From the IMG/VR virus record IMGVR_UViG_3300023502_000001, positions 35,960 through 99,959 of that record: a DNA stretch of 64,000 nt. One strand, given 5' to 3'. Under the pieces are notes generated by a model. It was not told the DNA's origin and did not search any database. It worked only from the letters and a program-made list of their open reading frames with translations. The stretch is from a virus. Below are positions 744 through 61,739 of the stretch, piece after piece. The stretch's first letter is position 1, and each line of letters begins with the position of its first letter. The translations under genes were made by a program, and so were the position numbers.

Positions 744-1118
744 TTATTTCAGTAATAGGCATAACAATATTAATACACATGAACCAGCAGCTCCGTATTT
801 TATAACGTTCTGCTTTCTCTTTAAAGACTTATTAAGACCTTCAATAGATCTATTTTTATCTTCGATTATGTTTCCATAATATAGTAACTGAACTCTGCGA
901 ACAGAATCCGTTCTTTCCCAACTCTTATTTATTAGTTCCAGATTAGTTATTTTGGTTTTCAATAACGGAACAGTCTCAGAAAGTTTCTGATGTTCAGCGA
1001 ATATTAGGTTCGCTGTCTTTAGCTGTTCTCCCGTTATTGTAACGGTCGATGTATTCTGAGAAGAAGCACAAATTGACGCTATCAGAACTAGACATAATAG
1101 TAGATACTTTCTCATCAT
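744..1118 (-). CDS. secreted hypothetical protein
   Basis: 124-aa ORF; hydrophobic N-terminal signal-like segment MMRKYLLLCLVLIASICASSQ. Confidence 0.55.
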   Translation of the reverse strand: MMRKYLLLCLVLIASICASSQNTSTVTITGEQLKTANLIFAEHQKLSETVPLLKTKITNLELINKSWERTDSVRRVQLLYYGNIIEDKNRSIEGLNKSLKRKQNVIKYGAAGSCVLILLCLLLK

Positions 1119-1303
1119 ACTTCTTGTCTATATATTCAATCTTCTTCACAATGGAATCATTAACTATAAAGATACTATCTCTAATAATAGAATCTCGTAC
1201 AATTTCTTGCACGTCTACTATAGGTAAGTCAATGTGGCTCTTCCTAGAAGATAGTAAGTATATAATTAATAATCCCATTAGTATGATTGTAATATAACAG
1301 AGC

Positions 1304-1891
1304 TTAACCTTGTTCATTTAACTCAATGCCCATCGCCTTAGCCTTCTCTACAAGCTCGACGCATTTAGCAACATCTACGCTTCCGCTTTTAGCAGCATTG
1401 AATATTTCTTTTTCAGAACCGTTCAAATCCTCTATTTCTTTCTTGACTGCTTCTTTTTTATCAAAGCGGGCTTTCATCTGGTTATATCCTTTGATGATTC
1501 GTTCAGGGTTTTCTTTAATAAACCCTATTTCTTGTTTCAAGAATGCCTTAACCAGAGTCTTGTTAATTACACCTCTAGACTTAGTGTAGATAGTAGGACA
1601 CTTAGGATCATGTAAAGCCTTATTATAGGCGTTAGCTTTTCCTCTCTCCTTATCAAACTCGTCAGTTGGGTGACATACACTGATACCTACAGATACTACT
1701 CTGCAAACTTCTGCATAGTCCGGATCGTCTACACAAATATAGCCGTCTTCACTTGCCCATCCAACTGAAAGTTTGTAGTCATCTTCACTTTCTTCTGGAG
1801 ACTGACTCAAAGCACACGCTACAATCTTATGTTCCTTACCCTTGAAATCTACAAATGAGTCAATCATGTACTCAATCACATCCTGTTTCAT
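1304..1891 (-). CDS. hypothetical protein
   Basis: 195-aa ORF in track. Confidence 0.6.
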   Translation of the reverse strand: MKQDVIEYMIDSFVDFKGKEHKIVACALSQSPEESEDDYKLSVGWASEDGYICVDDPDYAEVCRVVSVGISVCHPTDEFDKERGKANAYNKALHDPKCPTIYTKSRGVINKTLVKAFLKQEIGFIKENPERIIKGYNQMKARFDKKEAVKKEIEDLNGSEKEIFNAAKSGSVDVAKCVELVEKAKAMGIELNEQG

Positions 1892-2121
1892 TTTCTACAA
1901 TTTTAAAACCGTTATTAATTAGATATTCTTCTGGAGCAAACTGTAATTCAAAGAACCTTCTTAGTGAATAATTCTTTTTCTTTACAGAAAGATTTTTCTT
2001 TTTTATAGTAATCGGTTTACTAGAAGAAAAGTATTTCTCCTCCATTAGAGCCGCTCCCCAACTCCAAATTTGATAAATCGAACTACAATAGATAAACTTA
2101 TCATGTGTATATACAATTTGC

Positions 2122-2595
2122 TTATCCTTCTCGTAAGTCTTCCGTAAGGTCATTGTAAAACACTTTAATAGTTTTGAAAATAAATGAATTTTTTCTTGAA
2201 TTATAGCAATCGTTCCAGCTTCTACTCTGATAATGAGTTAAAAGTTCAGAGGCTTTTACTCCTGTATAAACATTTTTGCAGAAGCTACTATCGTCCTCAC
2301 AGTCACAAGAGTTTATTGTATACTCTCCTATACCTATGGCATAATGCCAATGACTACCTATTATTTCGCTAAATTTACCTCCAAGAAAATAATCTTCATA
2401 GATTATAACTTTGAATTTAAATTTATCTCTACTAAGTAGCCTAGCTAAACAATATGCTATATAACAACAGCCTCCAGCATTAATGTCATACTCCTCATCC
2501 AGAAACTTACAAAGCTTATTAAGCCTTTCCGCTAGAATCTCCTGCACTTCCGGTGATTTCGAGTTTAATCTCTTCTTTTGCCTTTTTAAACTCAT
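2122..2595 (-). CDS. hypothetical protein (possible Cys/His peptidase-like)
   Basis: 157-aa ORF; conserved-looking Cys and His clusters (GGCCYIAYC ... HWHYAIG). Confidence 0.5.
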   Translation of the reverse strand: MSLKRQKKRLNSKSPEVQEILAERLNKLCKFLDEEYDINAGGCCYIAYCLARLLSRDKFKFKVIIYEDYFLGGKFSEIIGSHWHYAIGIGEYTINSCDCEDDSSFCKNVYTGVKASELLTHYQSRSWNDCYNSRKNSFIFKTIKVFYNDLTEDLREG

Positions 2596-2818
2596 CTAAG
2601 TACTGACCTAAAGTTATAATTTCATCTTTTCCGAATTTCTTTCTAGTTGCGTAGTTTATACAACGTTCTACAGCAGCCTCTAGTGAATAGCCATAGCCTT
2701 CCACTTTAAATTCTTTTCTCGGATTTTTCCCTCCAATATCATATAGCAGCTCCAAGTCGAAACGAGGAGAAGCATCATTGATAGGGGTTAGCCTATAAAA
2801 GGAGCCTTCAATTATCAT
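2519..2818 (-). CDS. hypothetical protein
   Basis: 99-aa ORF overlapping neighbours in operon-like arrangement. Confidence 0.45.
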   Translation of the reverse strand: MIIEGSFYRLTPINDASPRFDLELLYDIGGKNPRKEFKVEGYGYSLEAAVERCINYATRKKFGKDEIITLGQYLDEFKKAKEEIKLEITGSAGDSSGKA

Positions 2819-3185
2819 TTTCTATTTCTTTAATAAGATTTTCGATGAAGTCTGCTCTGTTCTGTATAGCTTCATATAGTTCATCTAGACTTTCAGCAAT
2901 ATAGATAGCACAATAAGTATATTGGTTTATACACGGGACACTAAACTTATTTACATTATCCTTGTTCCAAGAATATAAACACCCAGTGCAATCTGGGTCT
3001 CCAGCCTCATAACCGCATTCGTTGCATAAACAGCAATTTCTAAGACTCCCAAATCCAGTTATCCTAGATAACGCCTCATGCCAGTAATCATCGTCCTCAT
3101 GCGCATTGCTTTCAAGTTCCTCTCTTGTAATACTTCTATACTTTTTTACAAGACGTCTTGCAGCGTCTAAATTCTTTATTTGCAT
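2808..3185 (-). CDS. Cys-rich zinc-finger-like protein
   Basis: 125-aa ORF; CCLCNECGYEAGDPDCTGC cluster. Confidence 0.5.
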   Translation of the reverse strand: MQIKNLDAARRLVKKYRSITREELESNAHEDDDYWHEALSRITGFGSLRNCCLCNECGYEAGDPDCTGCLYSWNKDNVNKFSVPCINQYTYCAIYIAESLDELYEAIQNRADFIENLIKEIENDN

Positions 3186-3988
3186 ACATCTATTACTGTT
3201 AAGTTATTATTACTAGGCTGATATTCATAATCACAGTATGAATTAGTTATCGTAACATGGTCAAAATTGTTACACAACTTTTTCAAGCCTTCTATATTTA
3301 CAGCATGGCAAACTATAATCTCGAATCTATAGTTAGGATACTTTTCTTTAAGAACTTTAAGTTCTCCAAGGAATGTTCCTCCAGCATCGCACAAATCATC
3401 AATGAATACAAACGTAGAATAGTAACAATTTACATTTCTACCTATAGAGAATTCCTTGATTTTTCCAGTTTCTAAGTCTCTTGTCTTATTGAACACTAAA
3501 TGTCCCCATACCTTAGAGTACTCCCTGTATCTCTGATACGCTCCAGCATCAGGGAATACAACATTAGATTGTTGTGGTATATAGCTTCCATAATTCAATT
3601 CTTGACACCAACATCTAGAACCTAGAAGATTCTTTGCTCTGTTAGAGTGAGCCTCTAAAATACAGACTGAACGATAGTTCATTCCATTTAAGATATTGCA
3701 CACAATTTTCAGAGAAAATGGACGGTTAAAATCCATTACCCTATCCATACGCATAGACATTAGATAGGTAATAAATAAGTCCCACTCAATTTCTTGTCTG
3801 TCTAGAATATCGCCAACTTGAGCTAACAGAAACAATTCTTCGGCAGAAGTAATTCTACACATAACCTTTACCGAATCTTTCCTATCAAATTCGTCTGGAA
3901 AACTTATTTGAGGCTCTCCGTCAGGGAATGTAGTGAGGTCATACTTAATCTCACTTTCATCCCAATTAATTAAGTTTAATAATTTCAT
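3176..3988 (-). CDS. PRPP-synthetase-like pyrophosphokinase (Adps-like of NAD+ reconstitution pathway)
   Basis: 270 aa; Prs-like motifs FPDGE, VFPDAGAYQR and PRPP-binding loop FVFIDDLCDAGGTF; overlaps and is co-oriented with the NAMPT-like gene. Confidence 0.7.
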   Translation of the reverse strand: MKLLNLINWDESEIKYDLTTFPDGEPQISFPDEFDRKDSVKVMCRITSAEELFLLAQVGDILDRQEIEWDLFITYLMSMRMDRVMDFNRPFSLKIVCNILNGMNYRSVCILEAHSNRAKNLLGSRCWCQELNYGSYIPQQSNVVFPDAGAYQRYREYSKVWGHLVFNKTRDLETGKIKEFSIGRNVNCYYSTFVFIDDLCDAGGTFLGELKVLKEKYPNYRFEIIVCHAVNIEGLKKLCNNFDHVTITNSYCDYEYQPSNNNLTVIDVCK

Positions 3989-4457
3989 CTACGACATATT
4001 TTAAGATTTCATAACTTTCTTCTAAGCCCGCCCTATCGTCTAGTAGAATATTGTAATAAGGCTTTCTAGAGTTCGGAAATAGTCTACTGCTTGTAAAAGG
4101 AGGTATAATCATATCATTAATAAGATTTCCTATCCCCATTTGGACACACTCTACTTGTTTCTCTATAATTTTATTTTCGTTTTCCTCTGTAGAAAGTAAA
4201 ATCATTTCAAAACCTAACATAGTACAACGTCTCAGTAGATTAATAACACAACTATAATCTCCTCCAGTATTATGATAGTCGAAGATAGTGTTATCAAAGT
4301 CGAAAGCGACTATTAGCTTTCCGTATTTCTTATACTCTTCTAATAGTCGCTTCTTACAAGCCTCTTTTCCAAATGGATGGTTAAAACTTTCCATGTAATC
4401 CATTATTAATTCTTTGCCTGATATCCTGTAGAGAATACTCCTTTTTAAGGATACCAT
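3966..4457 (-). CDS. HAD-superfamily phosphatase
   Basis: 163 aa; HAD motif I IVAFDFDNTIF (DxDxT). Confidence 0.65.
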   Translation of the reverse strand: MVSLKRSILYRISGKELIMDYMESFNHPFGKEACKKRLLEEYKKYGKLIVAFDFDNTIFDYHNTGGDYSCVINLLRRCTMLGFEMILLSTEENENKIIEKQVECVQMGIGNLINDMIIPPFTSSRLFPNSRKPYYNILLDDRAGLEESYEILKYVVDEIIKLN

Positions 4458-5943
4458 CTTCGAACACAGCCTCTAAACAGCCTCCCTCTTCTACTTCAGG
4501 ACTTACTTGGTCTTCCGCGTAGTAGACACCGTTGACATCCTGATAAACGGCAATTAACCCTTTCAAAGAGTTCTTAGTCCCATCATCAGTTTTCGGATGT
4601 TTAAAGATTTCCTTCAATTCTCCATTGATTACACAAGCAGTAGCCTTAACTGCAAAGCCTAGACTATCTCTACTTGCATACTGATATGAGAATGAACCAA
4701 CACCAAGAACAAGATTACAAGCTGCCATATGAGCATTTTCAAGTCTCATGTAGATTTGTTTCTGACGCTCTAAAGTAATAGAATCGCCATATAACAAGCC
4801 TATCTTAGTACTCGGATAACGATAGTCCTTGGAAGTAGTATTCCAGCCGAATATCTTACCAAGCATATAGTATGCTCCGTAATATTGACCTTCTGATACT
4901 TCTACGTATTCTGCATCGTCATTAAACGGAGCATAACAGCAGTAGTATTTACCTTCCTTTATTCTTGTATTGAAATGAGGATTAGTTCTCAAACCACAAA
5001 TAATATCTACCGGGTCTCCACTATCGGGACGAATAACTACACGACCGTCACGAGCCATAATGTCTTTCTTCAACTTAGGAAGGAAGTTTTCAACAACATT
5101 CCAGAAATCCCAAGTATCGGACACTATAGAAACAAACCCAGTAGGATATAACTCATTAATAAGACGTTTATATGTTCCTAACTCGTCCTCTTCTCCTCCT
5201 GCACACATTACCGAATGTTCAGTAGCCGGAACAGTAGCAGCAATTAATTCACTATCCGAATTAGCTCCATAATACTCTTCAAGAGCTGCAATAGCAGGAA
5301 TAGTTTCACTTCCTACAAATGAAGTCATATGAGCCATACCAGAAATAACAGATGCTTCCAAACCAGCCATTCCTCTCATAGAGAAGTCATGACACAAGAA
5401 ATCCAGGTTTACATCCTCCGGAAATCCAGTGTGTACTGAGTGTCTTTTGAGTTCTTTCTTATAGAGTCTTGCTCTAGTGGCAGAGGTACAAGGCATCCAC
5501 AAAGTACAACTAATCAAAGTCTCTAGATAATTAGTTAACCAAAAGAACTCTGGTTTCGTATTAGTAATAGTCATCATAGGAACTCTAATAGGACATACTG
5601 AACCTTCTGGCAACGCTTTAATACGAATAGGGAGATATCCTAAATCATACAAAGCCTCAATATGTCTATATCCCACGGACTCAATTCCAACGAAGTTGTG
5701 GACTCTCCGATAAAACATTTCTATAGCTTTCTCTTTAGGCAATACAAAGAAATTCTTATTAAATTCGTCGATCAAATACTTTTTAATTAAATATTGGATT
5801 CCGAATACTACAGAACCTTCGGTAGCTTCTGGAAAGTACTTGTTACTTCTCGGAGTCCAGTTACTATAAACTTGTTCAGTACCTTCTGGGTACATCCTGT
5901 GATGGCCTAATTTGTAACCATCTGTTGCATTAATTATTTCCAT
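4381..5943 (-). CDS. nicotinamide phosphoribosyltransferase family protein (NadV/Namat-like)
   Basis: 520 aa; N-terminal ATDGYKLGHH resembles the NAMPT DSYK motif region; size matches NAMPT. Confidence 0.75.
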   Translation of the reverse strand: MEIINATDGYKLGHHRMYPEGTEQVYSNWTPRSNKYFPEATEGSVVFGIQYLIKKYLIDEFNKNFFVLPKEKAIEMFYRRVHNFVGIESVGYRHIEALYDLGYLPIRIKALPEGSVCPIRVPMMTITNTKPEFFWLTNYLETLISCTLWMPCTSATRARLYKKELKRHSVHTGFPEDVNLDFLCHDFSMRGMAGLEASVISGMAHMTSFVGSETIPAIAALEEYYGANSDSELIAATVPATEHSVMCAGGEEDELGTYKRLINELYPTGFVSIVSDTWDFWNVVENFLPKLKKDIMARDGRVVIRPDSGDPVDIICGLRTNPHFNTRIKEGKYYCCYAPFNDDAEYVEVSEGQYYGAYYMLGKIFGWNTTSKDYRYPSTKIGLLYGDSITLERQKQIYMRLENAHMAACNLVLGVGSFSYQYASRDSLGFAVKATACVINGELKEIFKHPKTDDGTKNSLKGLIAVYQDVNGVYYAEDQVSPEVEEGGCLEAVFEDGILKKEYSLQDIRQRINNGLHGKF

Positions 5944-5956: not shown

Positions 5957-6463
5957 TTAATAACTGATTGTTAATAAACTCTTCATGTTTTTACCGACAG
6001 CTAAGTTCTTAAAACATTGAGTAATAAACTCTTTTGTCTCTGGATGAATCGCTCTAGGAGCGCTAATATATTTAATCCACCAGTTGTACTCTCCTTGGAA
6101 ACTATTTCCATTATATACCTTACCAGCGGCTAAATAATCACACACTAACTCTAATGCATATTCTCTAGGGATTTTCACTGGGACTCCACCAGAATCTAAT
6201 TGAGTTACCCAATATTCATAATGATGTGGATTTCTTCCTCTATGATGTAAATAGGACCTAGAATAGCCCAGAATTTCTTTCTCCTTATTTAATGGAGATG
6301 TGTTATCATCGTAAAATTTAACAGAGCGAGAAAATTCATACCATCCGAACTTAGATAAATCGTGCAAAATGCCCTGCCTGTATAGTCCTAATTGGAAGCA
6401 ATAGTATGCAACCCAGAACTTATGCCTTAGTATCCTTCTTAAATGCTTTAATATCCGAATCAT
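5957..6463 (-). CDS. hypothetical protein
   Basis: 168-aa ORF. Confidence 0.55.
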   Translation of the reverse strand: MIRILKHLRRILRHKFWVAYYCFQLGLYRQGILHDLSKFGWYEFSRSVKFYDDNTSPLNKEKEILGYSRSYLHHRGRNPHHYEYWVTQLDSGGVPVKIPREYALELVCDYLAAGKVYNGNSFQGEYNWWIKYISAPRAIHPETKEFITQCFKNLAVGKNMKSLLTISY

Positions 6464-7074: not shown

Positions 7075-7899
7075 TTATTTCCCAGCTACATCCTTAAATA
7101 AGGTAGGAACAGTACCATAAGTAGGCAGTTTTCCATCCCACTTCTCCACAAAATTCTGTTGTACAATCAATGCAGATAAGGAAGCTGCAATCTTTCTGTT
7201 ATACTCAGCTTCTGCGTCTCCCTTAATTTTCAGAGCCTGAGCTGCTCCCTCTGCTTGGGCTACAGCCTTTTTAGCATTAGCTTCTACAGATTTAACCTCA
7301 TTTTCTATCTTAAGAGCATCCTGCACCGCTTTATTTTTAGCATCAATAGCATCTACTAGTGTCTTAGGATATTGAAGACCAGAAGTTAGCTGCTCAAGTT
7401 GGAAGTTTTCGGCAAGTAATTCTTTGCTTAATCTATCTTCTATAGATTTCTCAAACTCTTCTCTTTTGCTAACTAATTCATCAGTAGTATAATTATTAAG
7501 TTGTATACGGAATGCGTTTTTAACATAGTTATATAATGTAGTATTTACGACATCAAGTATATTGTCTTTTCTGTATTTCTTAAATACCTCAGGTGACTTT
7601 CCATCAACTATCTTAAGAGATATAGTAGGGTCAACAGTAAATGACGAACCATCCTTAGCGTTAATAGAAAAAGCCTCATAGTCCACAGTAAGCACATAGG
7701 TTGGGTATTCATATACAGCTGTGGTAATTGGATTATACCAAACAGCCCCCGTGACCAATGAGATGTCATCTACTCCTTTACCATCACCGTAAAGATTTAC
7801 CTTGATTCCTTCATGTCCAGCGTCTACCCGCTCGTAGCCGCAACTTGACAAACCAAATACTAGAGTTAATACACACAGAAACTTAATTATTGTCTTCAT
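7075..7899 (-). CDS. SPFH/band-7 family lipoprotein
   Basis: 274 aa; lipoprotein signal ...LVFGLSSCG; C-terminal Ala/Glu/Lys-rich helix typical of prohibitin/stomatin-like proteins. Confidence 0.6.
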   Translation of the reverse strand: MKTIIKFLCVLTLVFGLSSCGYERVDAGHEGIKVNLYGDGKGVDDISLVTGAVWYNPITTAVYEYPTYVLTVDYEAFSINAKDGSSFTVDPTISLKIVDGKSPEVFKKYRKDNILDVVNTTLYNYVKNAFRIQLNNYTTDELVSKREEFEKSIEDRLSKELLAENFQLEQLTSGLQYPKTLVDAIDAKNKAVQDALKIENEVKSVEANAKKAVAQAEGAAQALKIKGDAEAEYNRKIAASLSALIVQQNFVEKWDGKLPTYGTVPTLFKDVAGK

Positions 7900-8336: not shown

Positions 8337-9353
8337 TCATTGCTCAGAAACTATTACAATTCTGTTAAATTCATTATCTCCAAAATCAGTAGTAACTCCA
8401 CACCCCTTTACTGTAAGTTTGTCCTCTGGAGCACCATAGTTAACCAGAGCCTTCTTCATAGATTCCGCTCTAGCATTAGCTAATTTGTTGTTGAAGTCGA
8501 TAGGTCCCTCTTCAGAAGCATATCCCTCTATAACATATGACTTACCACTATTTGCTATGTAAGCTGCTAATTCAGACACAGCAACATTAGAAGTAGCGGA
8601 TATTTCAGAGGAGTTTTGTAAGAATTGGATTTTAGGAGTAAGTAATTCTACCTTAGTAATTTCTATGGTATCTACCTTAACTACCTCAACAGGTTTGCGA
8701 GCCATAAGTTCATTATTCTTCTCTCTCAATTCATTAATAGACGCATTTAAGCTTTCTATTTCCGAATCGTTATAAAGTTTCATAACTGGGAAATTCCCTT
8801 TGCTCGACTTAAATCTGTAAGTAGCTCCTACATAAACATTGACTTCTTGGTTTAATGGAGTAGTTTTAGGAAGTAGCATATATTCTGGGGTTATATTTAA
8901 CGCCCACGTATCAGTAATGTTGAAATTACATCTTACTGCACCACGCGCAGATACATTGTTATAGACGTACCCATAGGTATGATACCAACCGGCTCCTATA
9001 ATCAATACGGGTTCAAACAGACGTCTATTACCTTCATAGCCACATACCAGATTACTAAGATTGGTAGTAACATTAGCCGTAAGGTTGTGTGAATCAAAGA
9101 ATGTCTTATTTCCCTGATTCATACCCGCTACCATGTCTAATTCTAGGCCAAAGATGGGTGTAATTTCTTTACCTACAGCAATATTCACCAGAATATCATT
9201 AGGTTCAGTCCAACTTCTCTGATTGTCCCAGACTGTAGTTCCAACATTACCGGAAATATACCAATTGTCTTTCAAACTTCCGGTTTCTACAACTTGCGCA
9301 CTTGCAAACGCACACATTAAACACAAACAAATAATACTAAAAATTTTCTTCAT
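8337..9353 (-). CDS. OmpA-family outer-membrane protein
   Basis: 338 aa; signal peptide MKKIFSIICLCLMCAFASAQ; C-terminal OmpA-like peptidoglycan-binding motif NNKLANARAESMKKAL...NRIVIV. Confidence 0.65.
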   Translation of the reverse strand: MKKIFSIICLCLMCAFASAQVVETGSLKDNWYISGNVGTTVWDNQRSWTEPNDILVNIAVGKEITPIFGLELDMVAGMNQGNKTFFDSHNLTANVTTNLSNLVCGYEGNRRLFEPVLIIGAGWYHTYGYVYNNVSARGAVRCNFNITDTWALNITPEYMLLPKTTPLNQEVNVYVGATYRFKSSKGNFPVMKLYNDSEIESLNASINELREKNNELMARKPVEVVKVDTIEITKVELLTPKIQFLQNSSEISATSNVAVSELAAYIANSGKSYVIEGYASEEGPIDFNNKLANARAESMKKALVNYGAPEDKLTVKGCGVTTDFGDNEFNRIVIVSEQ

Positions 9354-13882: not shown

Positions 13883-14377
13883 TTATTTACCTATGTTCTT
13901 GCCACGGTAGTTATCAGTAAAAGCATGACAATTTGGACAGAGTAGTTGTAAATTCTCTATTCTCAAATCATCCTTAATACCATTTACATGATGTAATTCT
14001 AGAGCAATAGGTTTACCCATCCACTCTGTATTACCACAACATTCACATTTGTACTCTTTCACACATTCCTTTAACAATCTGTCTTTTAAATGATAGGTAC
14101 TTCTATAGGAAGAGTGCTCTATTAAAATAGATTCTAACGATTGTGCTTCCTTTATAGGTTTATATCTATCTCCTTGATTCCAAGCTTGTCCAGTCATGTG
14201 AGATGTATCTAAGTTAAGTTCACTAATCTTACGCTTTACAGTTTCATAGTTACTGCCAGCAGGTTTAAGTCCTAACTTTCTCATTACTTCTGCATGAGAT
14301 AGGCTAGTCTTTACTGCTTCAATGAATTGTTCGTCTGTCCATTTTCTCTTACTCATCCTTGTATATTTAATACACAA
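13883..14377 (-). CDS. HNH endonuclease
   Basis: 164 aa; C-terminal HNH motif ...LELHHVNGIKDD...LCPNCH. Confidence 0.7.
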   Translation of the reverse strand: MCIKYTRMSKRKWTDEQFIEAVKTSLSHAEVMRKLGLKPAGSNYETVKRKISELNLDTSHMTGQAWNQGDRYKPIKEAQSLESILIEHSSYRSTYHLKDRLLKECVKEYKCECCGNTEWMGKPIALELHHVNGIKDDLRIENLQLLCPNCHAFTDNYRGKNIGK

Positions 14378-20938: not shown

Positions 20939-21490
20939 TTACTCCAGACTAATTAAACCCTTCTCTAACATAATATGGTGATTCGGACATAACCATACTA
21001 AATTATTCTCGTTGTTAATCTCCTTAATAAGAGTGTCTTCGTCAAATTCTAATATTCCTTTAAGATGATGTACTTCAAGTATTGCATCAAATTCATGATT
21101 ATGACAATATTGACATACTTTCTCACGTTCGGAACTTTCTAATACTCTACGAGCATTAGTCCTTATTTCTTGACATTTAGATGATAAGTACTTCTGCCCA
21201 GATGTATAATAACCTAATGTTTTGTTACCAATTCCATTAAGTTCTTCCCAGCAACTACGACACATTTCTGAATCTTTATGCTTAGGTTTACCACATCTAG
21301 GACATATCTTGTTTTCATCGTGCTTTATCCTACCTCTATTATTGTAAGAAGCAGCACACGAATGACTACAAAACTGTTTCTTCCTCACATCTGCGACCCT
21401 CTGATTATCTAGTACTTCGATTACCTTACCACATTCCTTACAGTGGTTAGGATTCTCATAATACAATTTAAGAGATTGTTCTCGATTCAC
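20939..21490 (-). CDS. HNH endonuclease
   Basis: 183 aa; zinc-binding CxxC pairs and HNH motif ...EVHHLKG...NLVWLCPNHH. Confidence 0.7.
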   Translation of the reverse strand: MNREQSLKLYYENPNHCKECGKVIEVLDNQRVADVRKKQFCSHSCAASYNNRGRIKHDENKICPRCGKPKHKDSEMCRSCWEELNGIGNKTLGYYTSGQKYLSSKCQEIRTNARRVLESSEREKVCQYCHNHEFDAILEVHHLKGILEFDEDTLIKEINNENNLVWLCPNHHIMLEKGLISLE

Positions 21491-29071: not shown

Positions 29072-29494
29072 TCACACCATTTTAAGTTTTCCGTATACGT
29101 TGAATTCTGTAATAGGAATCCAGTTCACAATTTCGTTGCTATCTACCGGCTTTCCTCCATTAATTGTGCAAACAGTAATATGAGGTTTAGCATTAGCACA
29201 AGGTAATGTTGAATCTCCTATAGCAATCTTGAAAGCTATAGCTTTATTAGAGATACCTATTCCCTGTACTACCATTCTGTAATTATCACTGTAATTGCTC
29301 ATAATACGATCCATTAAGGCATTGTATACTTCTGAATCATTCTGATTCTTATGGAGTAAAGTACAATGATCTAAATACAAAGTACTTCCTCTTTGGAAGA
29401 CTAAGTCACATATAATAGGATTATCAATGATAACACGTAAAAGTGCATTTCTATCTTCCTCAGATAAAAATAATCCAAAATACTGATATTTCAT
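29072..29494 (-). CDS. hypothetical protein
   Basis: 140-aa ORF. Confidence 0.55.
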   Translation of the reverse strand: MKYQYFGLFLSEEDRNALLRVIIDNPIICDLVFQRGSTLYLDHCTLLHKNQNDSEVYNALMDRIMSNYSDNYRMVVQGIGISNKAIAFKIAIGDSTLPCANAKPHITVCTINGGKPVDSNEIVNWIPITEFNVYGKLKMV

Positions 29495-31015: not shown

Positions 31016-32980
31016 TTACTTCACTTCTTCAAACTCAGTTGTTTTGCTCTCAATCTGATTCTTTCCCAATACACTCTTAACGGTGTCAGCGAAAGGAATT
31101 GAGCGGAGCAGATCGAATGCAGGATTCAGACTTTCAGCCGTTTTAGCCATGAAATTACCAGCGGTATTCTCGTTACCATAAACAGTAACCTGTCCAAGGT
31201 GAACGTGTTCAAACATCTTAGCAGATGCTTCAGCAATACCAGACAACTGGTCAACTGTCTTGTACTGAACTACCATTTCTGGAGTCAAGCCAGATTCAAT
31301 CATCTTCTGGACTGCCAAGGCAGGAGCCATTTCAATAGCCTGAACTTTATCAGCCTCAGCCATTAATGATGCTCTCTTACCTTCTGCTTCAGCAAGCAGT
31401 TTCTTTCTTGTACCTTCAGCTTCTGCTTCAAGTTGCAACTTCGTTGCATCAGCTTTAGCTTCTGCTTCTTTCAGAATTTCAGCAGCCTTAGCTTCTGCTT
31501 TAAGAATTGCTTCTTGCTTTACAGCTTCTGCATCAATGATAGCCTTCTCCTTAGCTTTCTCAGCCGGAATAATGATTGCAGCTTTCAGCTTAGCTTCTTC
31601 AGCCTTAGCTTTAGCTTCATTAACTTCCACCTGGCGTTCTTGCTCCGTTTTAGCAACCGCCATCTGAGCTTCAACCTTAGAAGTGCCAGCTACTTTCTCA
31701 GCTTCAGCCTTAGCTTTCTCGGCTTCTCCCTTGGCTTTAGAGACTTCAATTGTAGCATTTTGCTCTGCTACTCCTGCAATCTTATCAGCTTCGGCTGCCT
31801 TTACACGCTTGTCTGATTCATACTTGGCAACTGCAGCTTCCTGCTCGTTGACAGCTTTCTCGGTTTCAGCTACCTGCTTTTGTTTAGCTTGAGCAATACG
31901 AGTCTGCTTTTCAGCTTCTGCTTCTGCTTTCTTAGCATCAGCTTGAGCTTTAGCTTTAGCTACGTTAGCTTCAGCTATAGACTCAGATTCGGCTCTGCTA
32001 GAATCAGCTTCTGATTGTGCTTTAGCCAAAGCAGCGATTCTCTCTGCTTCTGCCTTTGCTTTCTCAGATTCTGCTGTAGTATTAGCTCTTGCGATGTTAG
32101 CAACCTGTTCTGCTCTTTGGTTAGCAACACCAGATTGTTTGTTCTTTTCAGCCTCGGCAAGTCTAATTTCCTTCTCCTGATTGATTTCGGCAACCTTTAC
32201 TTCCTGCTCTTGCTTGGTTTGCGCAACAGTAGTTTCACGTTCCTTTTCAGCATCAGCTACAGCAATTTCACGCTGTTTGTTGGTTTCTGCAATCTGAATA
32301 TCTCCCTTCTTTTTCTCTTCTGCAATGTCAGCTTGTGCCTGAGCGAGAGCTTTAGTTGCAGCTTTCTGTCCAAGATTCTTGATATAGTTTGCATCGTCAG
32401 AAATATCGGCATTGTTAATGTTGATAATACTGAAACCTACCTTGTTAAGTTCGCTTTCAATATTTTCCTTAGCCTTACCGATAAACTTGATTCTGTCAGC
32501 ATTAATTTCCTCAATCGTCATTGTAGCCATCAAGCTTCTCACTTCACCAATGAGAATATCTTTGATTTGGTCTGAGATTTCAGAAGTTTTAGCTGTTAAG
32601 AATCTGCTTGCAGCATTTTGCATTAGCACCTGAGTAGTTCCAATACCAGTAGTTAATGTTACAGGAATATTTACCTTAATCATTTGACTAGATACACCTG
32701 ATACATTTACCTGAATCTGGATTGGTTTCAGCGACATCTTAGCCCAGTCTTGGATTACCGGCATCACGAATGTGCCACCTCCATGAATAATTTTAGAAGG
32801 CAAGATAACTTCTTCCGACTTTCCAGTCTTTTCATTAATTACCTTCTTCTTACCAGCCTTACCAAACACAACCAAGATTTCATCACTGGCACACTTGCGA
32901 TATCGCGACAAAAGTCCGATAAAAGTTAGTACTACCAATAATACAATAACACCTGCTACAATAAGAGTTTCTGTTGTCAT
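31016..32980 (-). CDS. flotillin-like SPFH-domain protein
   Basis: 654 aa; N-terminal TM helix, SPFH/band-7 region, then about 350 aa of Ala/Glu/Lys-rich coiled-coil repeats typical of flotillins (FloT/YuaG-like). Confidence 0.7.
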   Translation of the reverse strand: MTTETLIVAGVIVLLVVLTFIGLLSRYRKCASDEILVVFGKAGKKKVINEKTGKSEEVILPSKIIHGGGTFVMPVIQDWAKMSLKPIQIQVNVSGVSSQMIKVNIPVTLTTGIGTTQVLMQNAASRFLTAKTSEISDQIKDILIGEVRSLMATMTIEEINADRIKFIGKAKENIESELNKVGFSIININNADISDDANYIKNLGQKAATKALAQAQADIAEEKKKGDIQIAETNKQREIAVADAEKERETTVAQTKQEQEVKVAEINQEKEIRLAEAEKNKQSGVANQRAEQVANIARANTTAESEKAKAEAERIAALAKAQSEADSSRAESESIAEANVAKAKAQADAKKAEAEAEKQTRIAQAKQKQVAETEKAVNEQEAAVAKYESDKRVKAAEADKIAGVAEQNATIEVSKAKGEAEKAKAEAEKVAGTSKVEAQMAVAKTEQERQVEVNEAKAKAEEAKLKAAIIIPAEKAKEKAIIDAEAVKQEAILKAEAKAAEILKEAEAKADATKLQLEAEAEGTRKKLLAEAEGKRASLMAEADKVQAIEMAPALAVQKMIESGLTPEMVVQYKTVDQLSGIAEASAKMFEHVHLGQVTVYGNENTAGNFMAKTAESLNPAFDLLRSIPFADTVKSVLGKNQIESKTTEFEEVK

Positions 32981-42848: not shown

Positions 42849-43136
42849 GTAACGGTTGTTCTTATCTTGGGAGTAGGAGACCTAAGTCTCCCAGTATGCA
42901 CAATTGTTTCTCAACAACCTGCACCACTATGTACGATAAAAGAAGATGAATTATCCTGTGCCTACAATCATTTAAGATTGTCTTCGATTGTTAGTACAAT
43001 CTCACAATACTTTGCCTTATCTCACGATAAGACACCTCTATTCATAAGAGATGCTCTGCATTAGTCTCAGGGCGTACCCATTATAATCTTTAACTGCAAC
43101 AGAGTCTACAAGTAGTTGTAGTCCTCAAATACCAAG

Positions 43137-43207
43137 TTCCCCATTCTGGACTCGAACCAGAATCTCCTTCTTTAGAGGAAGGCGCAATAGCATTATACTA
43201 ATGGGGA
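43137..43207 (-). tRNA. atypical tRNA-like gene (anticodon loop CTAAAGA, reads AAA), possible pseudogene
   Basis: acceptor TCCCCAT/ATGGGGA and T-arm TCTGGTTCGAGTCCAGA are good; D-arm weak; A34 is unusual. Confidence 0.3.
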
Positions 43208-45598: not shown

Positions 45599-45670
45599 TG
45601 CCCTATGGTGTAATGGTCAGCACAGATGACTCTAAATCATTTAGTCTGGGTTCGAATCCTAGTAGGGCAA
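45599..45670 (+). tRNA. suppressor tRNA, anticodon CTA (reads TAG), Gln-derived
   Basis: hand fold: acceptor TGCCCTA/TAGGGCA, discriminator A, D-arm GTGTAATGGTCAGCAC, anticodon stem GATGA/TCATT, loop CTCTAAA (C34 T35 A36), T-arm CTGGGTTCGAATCCTAG; near-identical architecture to tRNA-Gln(TTG) at 30395..30466. Confidence 0.75.
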
Positions 45671-45687
45671 CTCCAAAATTAATAGCT

Positions 45688-49768: not shown

Positions 49769-49979
49769 TGAGAAAGTTTATTTCAAACCTGGGGATTGTG
49801 TTACTTTACGGTAGTGTAAGGTAATGCATTCTCCAGTAATGCTTGTTCTGAGAAGAGAATCAGCATTATTTAAAGATAACCAGGGATTGCGCGGACTTAG
49901 ATGTAGATGGTTTACTGATTCTGGACTGATGCAAGAAGCAGTATTTAATACAAAAGACTTAATTAAAGTAGAAGAATAA

Positions 49980-51193
49980 TGGCGAAAATACAATTTGATC
50001 CAGAGTTAATGTAGCATATCAAGACTATATATGGAGACGCAGAGTTAGACGGAAGAACTTTACAACAGTTGCATTAGACTTGGCAAAGTAATCCGAACTC
50101 TATTAGAAATACTGCATAGTAGAAGAAAAGAAGTGCTGTGCCAGCTATACAACAAAAACCTATATTAGGATTAAAGCTGTCTACTCCTACTATTCCTAAA
50201 AAAATAAATGCACCTTAGCAACAAATTCAAAACGACGACTTAAGAGGAGTCTAGGGGTTTGGTACGGCATTTAGAGAAGCCAGAAAGAGAGGACTAACTC
50301 AATTCAAATGGGGGAAAGGAGTGTATGGAACATAGTTAGCTAATGGAAAGAAAGCAACAGTAGAGGTAGGAACTCCAGTAATGAATAATCCCTATGTTAC
50401 ATATAGTCAAGACGGAAAAAGAGCTACTACGTACCAAAATCAAGTAGACTAGGAAACTGGAGAGCATACTGGAACTATCCAAGAACAATGGATAAAGCCG
50501 CCTACAACTAATATGTATGGGCAGAAACTAACTCCAGAATAGCTCAAAAATTAGAGAAGTTGGGAACATATACCAAAGGCAACTGCTAGATAGCAACGAG
50601 TTAAATATCAACAAGGAGGAGCAATGGCTAATTAGGAAGAATTACAAAAAGCATTTATGGCATACTTAATACAGGATGCCGCAGCACAAGGAATACAATT
50701 ACAATCTGAGTAGGATTTAGAACAATATGCTCAGCAATTAGGAGAAGACGGAATTAAAGCCAAATACCAGGAATTTATGCAAAAAATGCAAGGTGGGGTT
50801 ATGGCTAGATTAGGAGCTAAGCTTGAGTACTATAAAAAATTAAAAGGAGTTTGCCCAGAAGGGGAAGAGCTTGTTTATTTTAAACAAGGAGGGAGAATAT
50901 GTAAAGCCTGCCAGAAAGCTTAGAAAGGTGCCAAGGTAAAAGGTAACGAGGTAGACAAATTTAAGAAAGGAAGAGCACAGTATAAGAAAGATATGAAATC
51001 AGCGAAAGATGAAGCTTCTAGAGATTCTATATCTATTAATAAGTATAATGATTAGGAAACCATGTCTAATAAAGGACATAAAGGAAACTTCCAAAAGGGA
51101 AAATGGGTTCCTGATAGAAAGCAATATACTAAAAAGGATGCTTGTGGCTCTAAAATGAAAGTAAGCAAGTGTGGCTCTAAAATGAAGAAGTAA
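49980..51193 (+). CDS. Gln-rich hypothetical protein (TAG-recoded)
   Basis: about 404 codons open when TAG is sense (about 17 in-frame TAGs), terminated by TAA; MAKIQFDPELM(Q)HIKTIYGD... Confidence 0.6.
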
Positions 51194-51226
51194 GAAAAGA
51201 TTGTCGAATGTTAATGATTAATGATT

Positions 51227-51817
51227 ATGAATGTATTTAACTATAACACTTTAACTAAATAGTTAGAAATAAATGAACCAGAGATTCTTCTAGTTAAAGA
51301 GTTCAAAGCTTTACTACAAAGAGATAAATCTGTGGAAAAGGATAGAGCAATTAGAGAACTATCATACATTTATTTAGCTATTGATTGGAAGAGTCCGTAT
51401 AGCTAGTACTCTGAATATGAAAGGCACGATGAAGCAATTAATGATTCTGGATTAACAGAATCAGAATTTAATGATCCGATATTTAGGGAAGCATGTAGAA
51501 AATATAGAGCATTATAGGACTCAAATAAATCAATTAAATTATTAGAAGCTGCTAGAAGAGCTGCTGACTAGTTTATTGATTACTTCGATACTATTGTAGA
51601 CTTAAATGAACGTGACACTAATGGAAAGCCAGTATTCTCTGCTGAGAAAGTAATGAAGGAAATGGCTAGCCTTCATAAAGTTCACGAAGAATTAATTACA
51701 TTAGAAGATGAGGTTAAAAAAGAACTTACTGAATAGTCTACCGTTAGAGGAGGGGCTACAGATGGTTTTGATCCCGGAGAATTTTAATTATGCCAAGAAA
51801 GAAAAAGATATTACCTG
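51227..51817 (+). CDS. hypothetical protein, possible terminase small subunit by position (TAG-recoded)
   Basis: about 196 codons, 4 in-frame TAGs, ends TGA; directly precedes the terminase large subunit. Confidence 0.45.
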
Positions 51818-54150
51818 ATGAACTATAGACTATAGTAGATTAGGTAAGAGAAAAAGAACATAAAGAAGATGCTGTAGAGGCAAGAGAGCTAGTATAGAAA
51901 ATAAGAGAAGAAAGGGTCAAAAGTGCAGACTATTGGGATGTCAAGAAAGGAGACAAGATAGATGTTTTTGACCCTACTTTGTCTTATGAGATAACTGGCT
52001 ATAGACCTATTGATGAAACGCATGGTTTGGACTTTAATCCCGAATGGTTCACCGAAACCAGAGAAGTATACAGAAAGACTGGGAAGTATTGTCCCTACTT
52101 AAAAGACAGTAAGAGATACAATGAATTTTGGAAAGAGTAGTACAGAAGATGTAAATATGGAATGACAGTTAATGGTTATACTATTACTGGAGATAACTAT
52201 TTCTTCTTAAATTTCTATTAGCTTCCTATTATTGATGATAATAAAGCATCCGGTGAAGGAACTAATAGTGACTTCCCTATATTCTTTGCATCCCATTACA
52301 TGTTCTTCCATTACTTACAAATGGCTAGAGTACTACATAGACATGCAGCTTTAATGAAGGCTCGTTCAATCGGATTCTCAGAAATAAATGCCTCACTATC
52401 CGCTCGTATGTATTCTGTAATTAGAAGAAGTAGAGTAATGATTACTTGCTTTAATGATACCTTCCTTAAAGGTACATTTAGTAAGTTTGATAATGCTCTA
52501 ACATTTTTAAATACTTGCACAGGTGGAGGATTCTTTAAGCTTCGTCTAATTGACCAGGATTTAAGAAAGAAGTCTGGTAAGTAGGTTAAAGTAAACGGAT
52601 AGTTTGAAGATGTTGGATTTAAATCAGAAGTAGTAGGAATAAATGGAGCTAAACCATCTAATATTCGTGGAGACCGTGTTGACTTATTAATATATGATGA
52701 AGCAGGGTCTTGGCCAGGATTAGATACTGCTGTGGTACAAGGACAAGAACTTTGTGAAGTCTAGGGTAAGCCTCGTGGAACAATGTTGTTTGGAGGTACT
52801 GGTGGTGATATGGGTGCTCCATTAGCAGGTCTTAAAAAGATTTACTATAATCCAAAAGCTTACAAAGTTCTTCCCTTTAGACATAATTATACTCAAGATG
52901 GGACTACTATTGAGAGTGGATTCTTTATTCCATATTTTGTACAGTCTTTGAACTCCGAATACATGGATCATAGAGGTGTATGTAATACCGTAGAATATAA
53001 GAAGTATCTGTAGGAAGAAAGAGATAATCTATTAGCAGTACCCGATGACTATTTAAAGAAGTGTGCTGAACGTTGTTGGAATGCAGAAGAGGCCTTCAAT
53101 CTAGAAGGTGTTAACAAGTTTAACAAAATTCTTATTTCTGATCAATTAGCTAATATAAGACTAAAGAAAATAGGTCCCAGACCAGAATGTGGTTATATAG
53201 ATTACTTCTATAAAAATAATAAACACACTGCTGATAACATTGATGGATTTAAGTGGATTCCTAATACTAAGGGAAAGGTAAAGATTCTGGAACATCCAGT
53301 ATGGTCTGACCTATATAAGGAGTAGATGGATAAACTTAGATAGGAAGCAGAGGAAAGAGGAGAGGAATTTGAAGCACCTGTATATAAAGAAATGCATAAT
53401 CTTTATATTGCAGGAATAGACGGTATTGATATAGGAGCTAATTAGACCTCAAAGGAAACTAAAGATCCTTCTGACTTCTGTATAACTATTAAGAGAAGGG
53501 CATTTGGTATGAGTGAGCCATAGTATGTAGCAATGTATAAGGACAGACCTGGAGACATTCGAGAGGCTTACAAAATAGCTATGTGTTTACTTAGATACTA
53601 CAACTGTAAGGTAAATATAGAAGCAACCCGTGTTGGTATGATTACCTGGGCTAGAGAAAAGAAATGTTTGAATTACTTTATGAAACGTCCTAGAGCTACT
53701 CTTACTGATGTTAAAAATGGAACTACTAAATAGTATGGAACTCCAGCTACTAAAACTATTATAGAACAACACACTGATCTAACTGCTGCGTTTGTGGAAG
53801 ATTATTGTCATACTATATGGTTTGAAGAAATGTTGGAATAGCTTACTGGATATAATGACGAGAATAAAGGTAAGTTCGATATTATAGCAGCTATGGGTAT
53901 GACAGAATTAGCAGATGAAGAGTTGTCTGGAAGATAGCCTATAGTTGTGGAAAAAGAAGTTGAATTGTTCAGGGATTTTGGTTATTATTACGATGAGAGA
54001 GGAATAAAAAGATTTGGAGTTATACCAACTAGCGAAACTCCAGAATTAAATATGCAAGACGACGAATACGATGACCCATACAGAATTGAAACAAGTGATC
54101 CTAGAGTATATGAGAGACTTATACCAAATGGAATATATAGGCGGACTTGA
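51790..54150 (+). CDS. terL: terminase large subunit (TAG-recoded)
   Basis: about 786 codons in one frame joining track ORFs 52300..52584, 52783..53013, 53533..53733 and 53947..54150 through in-frame TAGs; ATPase-like RGDRVDLLIYDEAGSW and nuclease-like LYIAGIDGIDIG / DIIAAMGM segments. Confidence 0.6.
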
Positions 54151-54347
54151 GATTGAGGATTTGAATCCAGTTGGTTACAAAATATCTTTTAACTTTGACA
54201 GGTCTGAGATGCCATTAGTAATCATAGCTGATTTACCCGATGATGAATTTCTGCCTTTTATTAAAGAAGAATTAAGAAGTAGGAAGTTATAGAGAGTTAA
54301 GTATTATAACGCCACTAAGCTTCCTCCAGAACAACATAATACATGTT

Positions 54348-56519
54348 ATGAAAGAGAAAGAATTGATAGACAAAACAAACGAGGCTATTGCGGAACTTGT
54401 GTATGATAAATATGAGCTTTAGAAAGCTTATAATTATTATAATGGTAAAAGAGATCCAGAATAGTTTCGCTATCTTGAAGAGAATTTTGGAATAGGCAGT
54501 CCTACATCAGTAGAATTTACACCACTACTTAAGAAGCATGTAGATGCTTTAGTAGGGGAATATCTAGGAACTCCAATACTCCCGAAAGTCTCTTGCAAAG
54601 ATTCAGATACTATCAGTAATATAACCAGAGAAAAATAGCTAGAGATAACTAAAGGAATAGTTAAGTTTTTAAAAGATCACTTAAGTAATGCTATCTTAAG
54701 CTTTATTGACGGAAAAGATATTACTGATAAAGCTGTAAAGACTCAGCTAGATAAGGTTATATAGGATATTGATTAGTCATTCATTTCTCAGTATGAAATT
54801 GCTGCGCAGAACATTATTCACTACCTAATGCAATCTAGGGAAACTGATCTTATTACTAAGTTGCGGTAGTTATTAACTGACTTACTAATTACTGGATACA
54901 CATTCTTTAGAGTAAAGTCTTCTTTCTCCGGAACTAATGTGGAGATAGAGGTTCTTAACCCGTTAAATACGTTTGTTGATAGAAATCCAGAATCTCCATA
55001 TGTCAAGAAATCATATAGAGTTGTTATTAGAAAATGGATGAGTAAAAGCCAAATACTAGCTAAGTATGGTAAAGAAATATCTAGAGAAGACTTAAAGAGG
55101 TTAAAAGATGAATGGAGAGCAGATGATTCTGCTGCTGTATACAGAAGAGTTTATGGAGATGTTTGTACAGTGGTTAATGAAGATCAAAATCATGAGACCA
55201 TTCCTGGGTATCCAGATAATGAATATAGTGCTCATAGATTTTAGTTAATTCCGGTCTACGATGTAGAGTGGATAGAGACTGATGATGATTTCAAAATGCA
55301 GAGATACAATACTATAAGGATAGGAGAGGAAATCTATATTCTTAGAGGATTAGACAAGACTGCAATGAGGTCTAAAGACGATCCTAACTCTTGTTCATTA
55401 TCAGTAAATGGAGTTTATTTTCTAAATCGTTCTCAGTAGCCATATTCTTTAATACTTAAGTGTGCACATCTACAGGATAGATATGACTTACTTAACTACT
55501 ACAGAGACAACTTGATAGCTAATAGTGGAACCTCAGGAGTTATTATGGATATGTCATTACTTCCTACTAACTTAGGAGTGCATTGGCCAGAAAGAGTATA
55601 GAAATGGTTAGCTTATAAAAAGGGTGGTATTATGTGGATTGATTCCACTTAGGAAGGAAGAAATGATGGAGCGCAGGCACCTAACTAGATATACAATGGA
55701 TTTGATGATACCCTTAAAGCGTAGGCTGTATAGGCTATTGAGTTAGCTATTCAATCAGTAGAATAGACTACATCATCTATAACTGGAGTATTTAGGGAAA
55801 GACTTAATGGAATAGAGACTCATGATGCTGTAACTAATATTAAGCAAGGAGTAGCTAATTCTTATATAGTAACTAAACACTACTTCCAACAAATGGATTT
55901 AATAACTTGTGAGATATTGTTGGATAGTCTTAATCAGGCTAAAGTAACTTACAAGAAAGGATTAACTGGAACCATTATATTAGGAGACAAGTATTAGCAG
56001 ATATTTACTGCACTTCCTGAATATTTCACAATGACTGATTTTGATATTCATATAACCTCTAGCACTGAAGTTATGGAAGATCTATAGACTATTAAAGCTA
56101 TGATTCCAGAGTTCCTTAAGAGTTAGTAGATGGATGCTGGTATAGTTTTTGAAGCATTAACAGCTAAGAGTTTAACAGACTTAAAGTATAAGGTTAAGAA
56201 AGCTATGTAGGTTTAGAAGGAAGAGAACAATCAATTACAATAGTTGTAGCAGAAGTTGGAGGAAACTTCATAGCAAGCACAACAATTACAATAGGAATTA
56301 GAAAAAGCTTAGTAGAAAATAGAGAGGTTAGATGAACAAAAACTTGGACTAGAGCAATAGAAAATGCAACTCGAATACAAGGTTAATTGGCTTAAAGCCC
56401 AATCAGATTCTACTTATAAAGATAGACAAATGGATATTGAAGAGAAGAGAACTGAAATAGAATTAGCATAGCTTCATGATGGAAATCCATATAACGATAA
56501 AATAAGACAAATACATTAA
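54348..56519 (+). CDS. portal protein (putative, by size and position; TAG-recoded)
   Basis: about 723 codons in the frame of track ORF 54939..55244, many in-frame TAGs, ends TAA; follows terL. Confidence 0.45.
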
Positions 56520-56520
56520 T

Positions 56521-57390
56521 ATGGCTACAGCAGGTACAATAGTATATAATAAAGATTAGCAACAAATATATCCAGTTTCTCATGCAGAGGTGGTAATTAG
56601 TAATGCTTCTGGAAGTAAGTCAGACGTGGAAGACAACCTTATAAAATTATGGAAAAAGGTCTCAGAATTAAGTGGAGACTAGGAAGCAGCTAGTAATATC
56701 ATGGTAGTAGTTACTTATTGTAAAACAAATACCAGAGATGAATCTGAAGTAAGAAAGTTATCATCATGGAGTGATATTTTTGAACTACCAGACTCAGAAA
56801 GACCATATGTTTGGAAGAAAACTTTATATACATATAAAGGAGACACAGCTAAACTTAATGAGATTTACGAAATTGTTGCTACAGATATTGCTGAAAAAAT
56901 TCAGAATATCTATATTGCAAGATCAACTGGGGTTGCTCCAGTTATTACTTATCCAATACTAACGGATGGATATGGAGATCCTATATTAGACTCTGAAGGA
57001 AATACTTAGGAAGATTTGACTGCTTTTGATAAAAAATTACCAGAAGGCTGGTCAGAAACTCCAGTTAGTATTGGTCCAGCTACTCCATATGTATTTATAT
57101 CAACACGTAAGAGAGTAGAAGGATTATGGAAAAGATATTCTGAACCAGCTCAATACGGTAGGTGGGCATTCGACAGTTAGTTAGAGTTACGATATACTAT
57201 TACTTCTGGAGATAAACCAGCTGTTAATACTACAAGTGATGATCCAGGAAGTTAGTGGTCTAGTGATACTCCAGATAGTTTTACTGGAAAAATGTGGATG
57301 ATTACTGCAACATCAGTAAATGGAGTATTGAATAGTGATGAAAACAACGTTAGATGGCATGGTCCTCATTTGATGTCAATTATACAATAA
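56521..57390 (+). CDS. virion-associated hypothetical protein (TAG-recoded)
   Basis: about 289 codons incl. track ORF 56701..57009; stop overlaps next start (TAATG). Confidence 0.5.
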
Positions 57391-61734: not shown

Positions 61735-61739
61735 ACAAG

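Follow-up and report, generated by a model that had tools for sequence, protein, structure and literature searches.

Organization of the locus

The window analyzed is a stretch of 64,000 nt from a large gut phage (positions 35,960 to 99,959 of the IMG/VR virus record IMGVR_UViG_3300023502_000001). Between positions 3176 and 5943 the minus strand hosts a module of three genes, encoding relatives of Adps and Namat, the two enzymes of the NAD+ reconstitution pathway NARP1, and, embedded between them, a small putative phosphatase of the HAD superfamily (Table 1). The genes are transcribed in the order Namat, HAD, Adps, and the HAD frame overlaps each of its neighbors by 23 nt. Three overlapping, co-directional genes had been called here, with no strand given, by the original prediction, made on the sequence alone, and all the motifs quoted in support of them are present. 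The 163 aa then assigned to the HAD protein are those of the longest open reading frame (ORF), which would extend the overlap with the Namat gene to 77 nt. Homologues and public gene calls favor a start at Met19 (position 4403) or Met22 (position 4394), hence a protein of 145 or 142 aa.

The module lies in a region of the genome read by the standard code: Namat, HAD and Adps genes all end with a TAA codon, and none has an internal TAG. A promoter and terminator scan found the minus strand free of terminator-like sites from 6463 to 3176, a result compatible with co-transcription; promoters were searched with a sigma-70 consensus, unsuited to this kind of phage and host, and this part of the scan was given no weight. 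More than 100 public contigs encode the identical Namat protein, and more than 100 the identical Adps protein.

Table 1. Genes and other features of the window, with coordinates in the window and strand
Feature	Position	Strand	Remarks
Namat-like gene	4381..5943	-	520 aa; NAMPT fold; TDGYKLGHH at residues 7-15
Small capless HAD-superfamily (putative) phosphatase gene	3966..4403	-	145 aa; longest ORF from 4457, 163 aa; DFDNT
Adps-like gene	3176..3988	-	270 aa; PRPS fold; FPDGE and FVFIDDLCDAGGTF
DUF5662 gene	5957..6463	-	Pfam PF18907, E 1e-27; 13 nt upstream of Namat
SPFH/Band-7 domain genes (two)	7075-7899, 31016-32980	-	
OmpA-family outer-membrane protein gene	8337-9353	-	N-terminal beta-barrel, C-terminal OmpA domain
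Array of 25 tRNA genes	13791-38770	-	Interspersed small ORFs and HNH endonuclease genes (13883-14377, 20939-21490)
140-aa ORF	29072-29494	-	Fungal tRNA ligase cyclic phosphodiesterase domain PF08302, 29 bits (cut-off 23)
Suppressor tRNAs, anticodon CUA	43136-43207, 45599-45671	-, +	Near the recoded block; 25 other tRNAs present
Terminase large subunit gene	51772-54150	+	16 in-frame TAGs
Portal gene	54276-56519	+	28 in-frame TAGs
Tail protein gene	61942-63771	+	TAG-recoded block

The Namat and Adps pair

NARP1 is made up of Adps and Namat, and has been described in the Bacillus phage SPbetaL1, in the E. coli phage Bas63 and in the Vibrio phage ICP1 (bioRxiv 10.1101/2024.02.11.579819). Structures of the NARP1 enzymes are available (PMC12774641, PMC13586617).

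The 520-aa protein matches the Pfam models NAPRTase (PF04095) and NAMPT_N (PF18127). Its top PDB matches are 9W5X and 9W5W (E 3e-148, 497 bits), which are SPbetaL1 Namat (PMC12774641), human NAMPT scoring 222 bits. Identity is 49% to SPbetaL1 Namat (398 bits) against 29% to KVP40 Nampt (171 bits), the reference sequences, KVP40 Nampt included, being those of Table S4 of bioRxiv 10.64898/2026.01.28.702374. Namat is separated from Nampt by a selectivity clamp, formed by the SCH motif (GS-X-phi-X-phi-X-phi-TRD, where X is an aromatic residue stacking on the adenine) and the SCL loop, the third residue of which is Arg, Lys or Tyr; a Lys or Tyr there is followed, at the fourth position, by a residue that stacks (PMC12774641). 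The SCH motif of the window protein is GSFSYQYASRD, with F, Y and Y at the X positions and S in place of T, whereas KVP40 Nampt has GGGLLQQLDRD. The SCL loop, located by alignment only, is S-N-K-Y, to be compared with S-D-K-W in the Bas63-like protein and T-S-R in SPbetaL1. In the alignment to SPbetaL1 Namat both catalytic motifs, HDFSMRG and RPDSGDP, are retained, and a 39-residue insertion follows RPDSGDPV..CG; this is not unusual, because the Namats of the Vibrio phages Gary and Noelle and the Bas63-like Namat carry even longer insertions at the same place. By its sequence, the protein is to be classed as a Namat and not as an ordinary NAMPT.

The 270-aa protein matches PHROG 619 (E 7e-53, 180 bits). 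It scores 59 bits with TIGR01251, the family model of PRPP synthetases (PRPS), for which the cut-off is 113, and stays far under the cut-offs of the equivalog models. In BLASTP comparisons, validated or near-validated Adps (SPbetaL1, Gary, ICP1, Bas63-like) give 59-82 bits, E. coli and human PRPS 39 and 27 bits, respectively, identity to the characterized Adps enzymes being only 24-30%. The PDB matches are archaeal PRPS only, in a PDB set that does not include the Adps structures of PMC13586617. The reference enzyme of that study (UniProt F1D1Q1) is ICP1 gp228, 16 of the 16 published residues being in agreement. Eight residues are kept in the window protein (R80, H114, D147, K168, D197, D198, C200, D201), equivalent to R87, H121, D161, K185, D212, D213, C215 and D216 of ICP1 Adps. 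With the exception of the cysteine, they do not separate the two families, because PRPS has them too. A family signature of Adps versus PRPS is that the C-terminal alpha11-alpha12 module is missing (PMC13586617). When aligned, the window protein ends together with the ICP1, SPbetaL1 and Bas63-like Adps, about 40 residues short of the PRPS C-termini.

The pyrophosphate (PP) loop is remodeled in ICP1 Adps, where residues C215-S220 bind the ATP donor (PMC13586617). The window protein reads DDLCDAGGT in this region (C200-D-A-G-G-T205, then F206), Cys and Phe being Adps-like, GGT PRPS-like. Two features tell against its assignment to Adps: the loop is intermediate between DDICDGAAS of ICP1 Adps and DDMIDTGGT of PRPS, and three residues which contact the adenine in ICP1 Adps are changed. 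The loop varies within the Adps family, since the validated SPbetaL1 enzyme has S-S-F-G-G-T, and the same three adenine-contact residues are also changed in the aligned Bas63-like homologue. The protein is probably an Adps.

The two-enzyme core is very probably a NARP1 system, because of the clamp and of the closeness to Namat of one protein, and of the closeness to Adps, the missing C-terminal module and the failed PRPS cut-off of the other. The original prediction had preferred NARP1 over a NadV-type salvage set, and had suggested comparing the proteins with NAMPT and Namat, and with Prs and Adps. Both comparisons bear the preference out. Neither NMNAT nor Nudix or Macro domains were found among the 37 window ORFs scanned with Pfam, the window making up about a third of a roughly 185-kb genome, and the lack of NMNAT leaves the salvage set not supported. 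By homology, the Adps-like protein would move pyrophosphate from ATP onto ADP-ribose (ADPR) to form ADPR-PP, and the Namat-like protein would couple ADPR-PP with nicotinamide to form NAD+. The two would in this way refill the NAD+ pool destroyed by NADase defenses (Thoeris, DSR, SIR2-HerA, SEFIR, and others).

The HAD protein

No Pfam or NCBIfam model matched the HAD protein. It matches PHROG 1238, labeled 'phosphoheptose isomerase', as are RefSeq entries (for example, NC_055884.1 KNV42_gp045), a label to which neither HAD motifs nor fold lend support. Across 34 sequences, the HAD motifs show little or no variation (D35-F-D37-N-T39; T71, the window protein having S70/T71; K114; D122-D123). DFDNT includes the Asp+2 general acid typical of phosphatases. 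Further invariant residues of the family are R19, D42, H44 and R124, and the N-terminal helix is conserved as well. The AF2 model (pLDDT 92.2, pTM 0.87) features a Rossmann-like HAD core devoid of a cap domain. Structural neighbors include the 3'-phosphatase of T4 Pnkp, deoxyribonucleotidases and viral 5'-nucleotidases. The protein shares with BT_0820 (PDB 2obb) and with the 3'-phosphatase domain of T4 polynucleotide kinase the same capless core and the DxDxT, S/T, K and DD signatures, but is only 15-23% identical to them, and falls into a separate, small group. Searched with a profile, 1.84 billion representative proteins yielded only 826 clusters, which makes the HAD family small and discrete.

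Association of HAD and NARP1 genes

Members of the HAD family are found in 82-84 annotated phage records, Adps-like genes in 1391. The HAD records include 54 Bacillus phages, 15 Prevotella Lak megaphages, crAss-like phages, one Vibrio, one Aeromonas and three Tenacibaculum phages. Among 79 IMG/VR loci hosting a relative of the HAD gene, Adps is adjacent in 75, and both partners are present, within about 1.5 kb, in 73. Three of the four unlinked exceptions end at a contig edge. These counts overstate independence, because many loci are close relatives from one sample; identities, however, reach down to 40%. Gene order varies, with at least four arrangements in viruses: Namat-HAD-Adps, Adps-HAD-Namat, HAD-Adps-Namat and Namat-HAD-DUF5662-Adps. 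The order of the window is that of the crAss-like phages cr126_1, cr111_1 and DAC15, and crAss-like Steigviridae host modules with 40-50% identity to the one in the window. Bacillus phage DIGNKC and Bacillus Herelleviridae phages feature the order Adps-HNH-Namat-HAD, Aeromonas phage PhAER-3 the order Adps-HAD-Namat. HAD and Adps are adjacent, with no Namat within 6 kb, in the loci L078 and L080 (the latter in a 416-kb contig) and in the Lak megaphage records.

The association is also found in bacteria, 39 of 62 HAD loci in contigs from genomes and metagenome-assembled genomes being linked to NARP1 genes, including loci of cultured Tamlana, Tenacibaculum, Mucilaginibacter, Cohnella and Paenibacillus. 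Linked members are spread over the full depth of the family tree. The HAD gene likely belongs, in functional terms, to the NARP1 operon.

The DUF5662 gene found next to the window module (Table 1) lies upstream of Namat in 45 of the 79 viral HAD loci; in one locus (L075) it separates HAD from Adps. The encoded protein carries His-rich motifs (HDLSKF, HHRGRNPHH), and no mention of DUF5662 was found in the literature. It was considered as a fourth gene of the module. DUF5662 is rare, being found in 10 phage records only, and is missing from the modules of cr126_1, DAC15 and Bacillus phages, as from other HAD-carrying lineages; it stays a lineage-specific neighbor, of uncertain membership.

A five-gene variant was observed in Phage Phass-1, a code-15 phage (OQ749652.1 93810-102178, L151; genes at 881-5319 of the locus). 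It includes a nicotinamidase-like gene, genes encoding an Adps-like (321 aa, DDICSRGGTF) and a Namat-like (GIGAYTYQYVTRD) protein, a HAD gene, and a gene resembling NAD synthetase (SGGKDS). This arrangement hints at a deamido (nicotinate) route tied to NARP1.

Macro and HAD genes occupy the same slot

A RES-domain defense, aRES, turns NAD+ into nicotinamide and ADPR-1''-phosphate, a product unusable by NARP1, and Vibrio phage Gary carries NARP1-AP, in which Adpp, a Poa1p-like Macro-domain protein, restores ADPR (bioRxiv 10.64898/2026.01.28.702374). Noelle and VPT02, both Vibrio phages of the Ermolyevavirinae subfamily, differ at this site. Noelle features the order Adps-Macro-Namat, with a Macro protein that matches PF01661 and is about 97% identical, by manual count, to the assayed Adpp of Gary. 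VPT02 features the order Adps-HAD-Namat, and a reciprocal search with the VPT02 protein returns the same HAD family as the window. The flanking genes of the two phages are orthologs (identities of 85% for RNA ligase, 80% for Nudix, 83% for Adps, 87% for Namat), the middle genes unrelated. Searches with a hidden Markov model built on seven Adpp proteins found no Adpp-like Macro gene in the whole VPT02 genome, in the six-frame translation of the window, or in the HAD loci, with the exception of a single locus (L144, DAORGW010000032.1, 4139-6200), which brings together genes for a Macro Adpp-like and an Adps-like protein, two small ORFs and a HAD gene.

The hosts of the two types can be compared. 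In the portion of Table S1 of bioRxiv 10.64898/2026.01.28.702374 that was consulted, Macro-type NARP1 neighbors come from phages of Proteobacteria only, with no Bacillus, Bacteroides, Prevotella or crAss entry among them. The HAD type is found mostly in phages of Bacillus, Prevotella and Bacteroides, and aRES genes are tabulated in Bacteroides, Prevotella and Bacillus genomes (bioRxiv 10.64898/2026.01.28.702374).

Possible roles of the HAD protein

The HAD protein would be an accessory 'feeder' phosphatase of NARP1, a phosphomonoesterase which would turn a phosphorylated ADPR, unusable by NARP1 as it is, into ADPR. First among the candidate substrates would be ADPR-1''-phosphate, the product of RES-domain (aRES-type) defenses. 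Among the roles considered, the one favored, tentatively and at about an even chance at best, is thus that of Adpp: the HAD protein may be a non-homologous analogue of the Macro enzyme, because the two fill the same slot in Noelle and VPT02, Vibrio phages whose Adps and Namat are 83-87% identical. The substrate we infer from the position of the gene, the chemistry of the family and the Macro/HAD swap. The original prediction had noted that the HAD gene lies outside of the published two-gene pathway, and supposed that it might dephosphorylate an intermediate. Both remarks went in the right direction. A phosphatase-bearing NARP1-AP has been described since, the substrate of its Adpp being an input of the pathway and not an intermediate. 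No mention of a HAD-type gene accompanying NARP1 was found in the searchable NARP1 papers and supplementary tables.

Several observations weigh against an Adpp-like role. The closest solved structure, BT_0820, is itself without an assigned function. Family members fused to a nucleoside 2-deoxyribosyltransferase-like domain (PF15891) or to DUF4406 were found (proteins P0241, P0248, P0249 and P0154), and the gene encoding P0241 adjoins YopX and DNA ligase genes, a context of DNA metabolism. Such fusions suggest that the general activity of the family may be on nucleotides or ribose phosphates. One more family member, P0209, is fused to GIY-YIG. No NARP1 genes were seen near the fusion proteins, in contigs that are short and weakly informative, and P0154, in a 1.8-kb contig, has no informative neighbors. 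In genome contigs, 23 of the 62 HAD loci stand alone, with no NAD-related neighbors, and belong mostly to two derived clades. Last, both phosphatase types are found together in one of about 147 loci, L144, and this coexistence argues against simple redundancy.

The rival that survives best, though unlikely, is that the HAD protein serves NARP1 through another substrate, namely 2'-phospho-ADPR deriving from NADP+ cleaved by NADases, or NADP+ itself, by which the NADP pool would be directed into NAD+, or else AMP or the pyrophosphate set free by Namat, products that would slow the pathway unless removed. The Macro Adpp and HAD genes found beside Adps in L144 suggest non-identical roles, the nearest structural neighbors include nucleotide 3'- and 5'-phosphatases, and the tight linkage to NARP1 fits any role serving the pathway. 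AMP is known to inhibit ICP1 Adps, with about 35% of the activity left at 500 uM; host pyrophosphatase and adenylate kinase, however, already clear pyrophosphate and AMP. No direct evidence favors any of 2'-phospho-ADPR, NADP+, AMP or pyrophosphate, and the one-for-one swap of Macro and HAD genes in Noelle and VPT02 points most simply to the same job.

More doubtful is that the HAD protein, far from standing in for Adpp, acts on a different phosphorylated product derived from NAD+, 2'-phospho-ADPR for example, or on a product of NAD+ destruction in Bacteroidota or Bacillota still to be described. This reading is kept open by L144.

It is improbable that the HAD protein is a general phosphatase of nucleotides, ribose phosphates or nucleic acid ends, comparable to T4 Pnkp or to 5'-nucleotidases, which merely travels with NARP1. 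The structural neighbors listed above, the fusions, GIY-YIG included, the YopX and DNA ligase genes near one of them and the 23 stand-alone loci would all fit such an enzyme. Against it, adjacency to Adps and Namat is maintained across Crassvirales-like, Lak, Herelleviridae, Demerecviridae and bacterial loci, and without a shared function its persistence despite rearranged gene orders would be difficult to account for. The HAD gene, moreover, takes the very place of the validated Adpp, and its frame overlaps both neighbors.

Highly improbable, finally, is ordinary NAD salvage, in which nicotinamide mononucleotide would be made by a genuine PRPP synthetase together with a NAMPT of the NadV type, a host or phage NMNAT would convert it to NAD+ as in NARP2, and the HAD gene would be unrelated: family models and public annotation do label one protein a ribose-phosphate pyrophosphokinase and the other a nicotinamide/nicotinate phosphoribosyltransferase, and Namat has some PRPP activity in vitro, but both clamp elements are present, the larger protein is far closer to validated Namat than to NARP2 Nampt, the smaller one is under the PRPS cut-off and lacks the regulatory PRPS C-terminus, and neither NMNAT nor Nudix was found among the window ORFs scanned.

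Comparison with known NAD+ reconstitution systems

In the window module, as in NARP1, the two enzyme families are neighbors, and clamp, acceptor residues and truncated Adps C-terminus are shared. The window differs in the embedded HAD gene, in the order Namat-HAD-Adps, in an Adps only 24-30% identical to the known ones, and in the 39-residue Namat insertion. Similarity to NARP1-AP is in the architecture, both being three-gene operons in which a small phosphatase gene separates Adps from Namat, and in VPT02, closely related to Gary and Noelle, a HAD gene fills the Adpp slot. The window phosphatase has, however, a HAD fold and a predicted aspartyl-phosphate mechanism, and is unrelated to Macro proteins in both sequence and fold.

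In the mycobacteriophage DyoEdafos, NARP1 is accompanied by RyDEP, a glycosidase with an RyR fold which feeds cyclic ADPR isomers into the pathway (bioRxiv 10.64898/2026.05.28.727677). The proposed logic is alike, an accessory gene adjacent to NARP1 turning a NAD+ derivative into usable ADPR, linear ADPR in the case of RyDEP; the accessory enzyme is a glycosidase there, a predicted phosphatase here. NARP2 (Nampt and Nmnat, in Vibrio phage KVP40) also relies on a NAMPT-fold enzyme to rebuild NAD+, but the window protein has a Namat clamp in place of the GGGLLQ-type sequence, and no NMNAT partner among the ORFs scanned. Three-gene NARP1 operons with a Macro gene are known; a NARP1 operon with a putative accessory phosphatase of the HAD type is new.

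Other features of the window

The region of the module contrasts in coding with a plus-strand block which starts at 49.9 kb (49967-63771). No ORF of at least 150 aa is found in this block under translation table 11, eight of 259-792 aa if TAG is read as a sense codon. Genes for the terminase large subunit, the portal and tail proteins contain 13-28 in-frame TAGs each, and suppressor tRNAs are encoded nearby (Table 1). GC skew reverses at about 44 kb. TAG recoding of late genes is already known in gut phages. The placement of the module in standard-code DNA would fit expression of NARP1 ahead of the recoded late genes.

A 140-aa ORF located within the tRNA array matches PF08302. Yeast enzymes of this class convert ADP-ribose 1'',2''-cyclic phosphate into ADPR-1''-phosphate, the substrate of Poa1p. 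As the ORF sits in the tRNA region, it may equally well serve tRNA repair. Two SPFH/Band-7 domain genes are found in the window, and a gene of the same type lies just downstream of the NARP1 module of cr126_1. Small ORFs, membrane or lipoprotein-like, surround the OmpA-family gene.

Significance

Depletion of NAD+ is among the commonest antiphage strategies, and the rebuilding of NAD+ by phages is a young and active field. The HAD protein offers to it a defined, small and readily expressed enzyme to assay, currently hidden behind the misleading label of PHROG 1238. Should it act on a product other than ADPR-1''-phosphate, HAD genes in NARP1 operons would mark a defense chemistry still to be found. 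Should it be an ADPR-1''-phosphate phosphatase, two unrelated folds placed in the same operon slot would make a clear case of convergent counter-defense, and RES-type, or similar non-canonical, NAD+ cleavage would exert real selection in human-gut Bacteroidota as well as in Bacillus.

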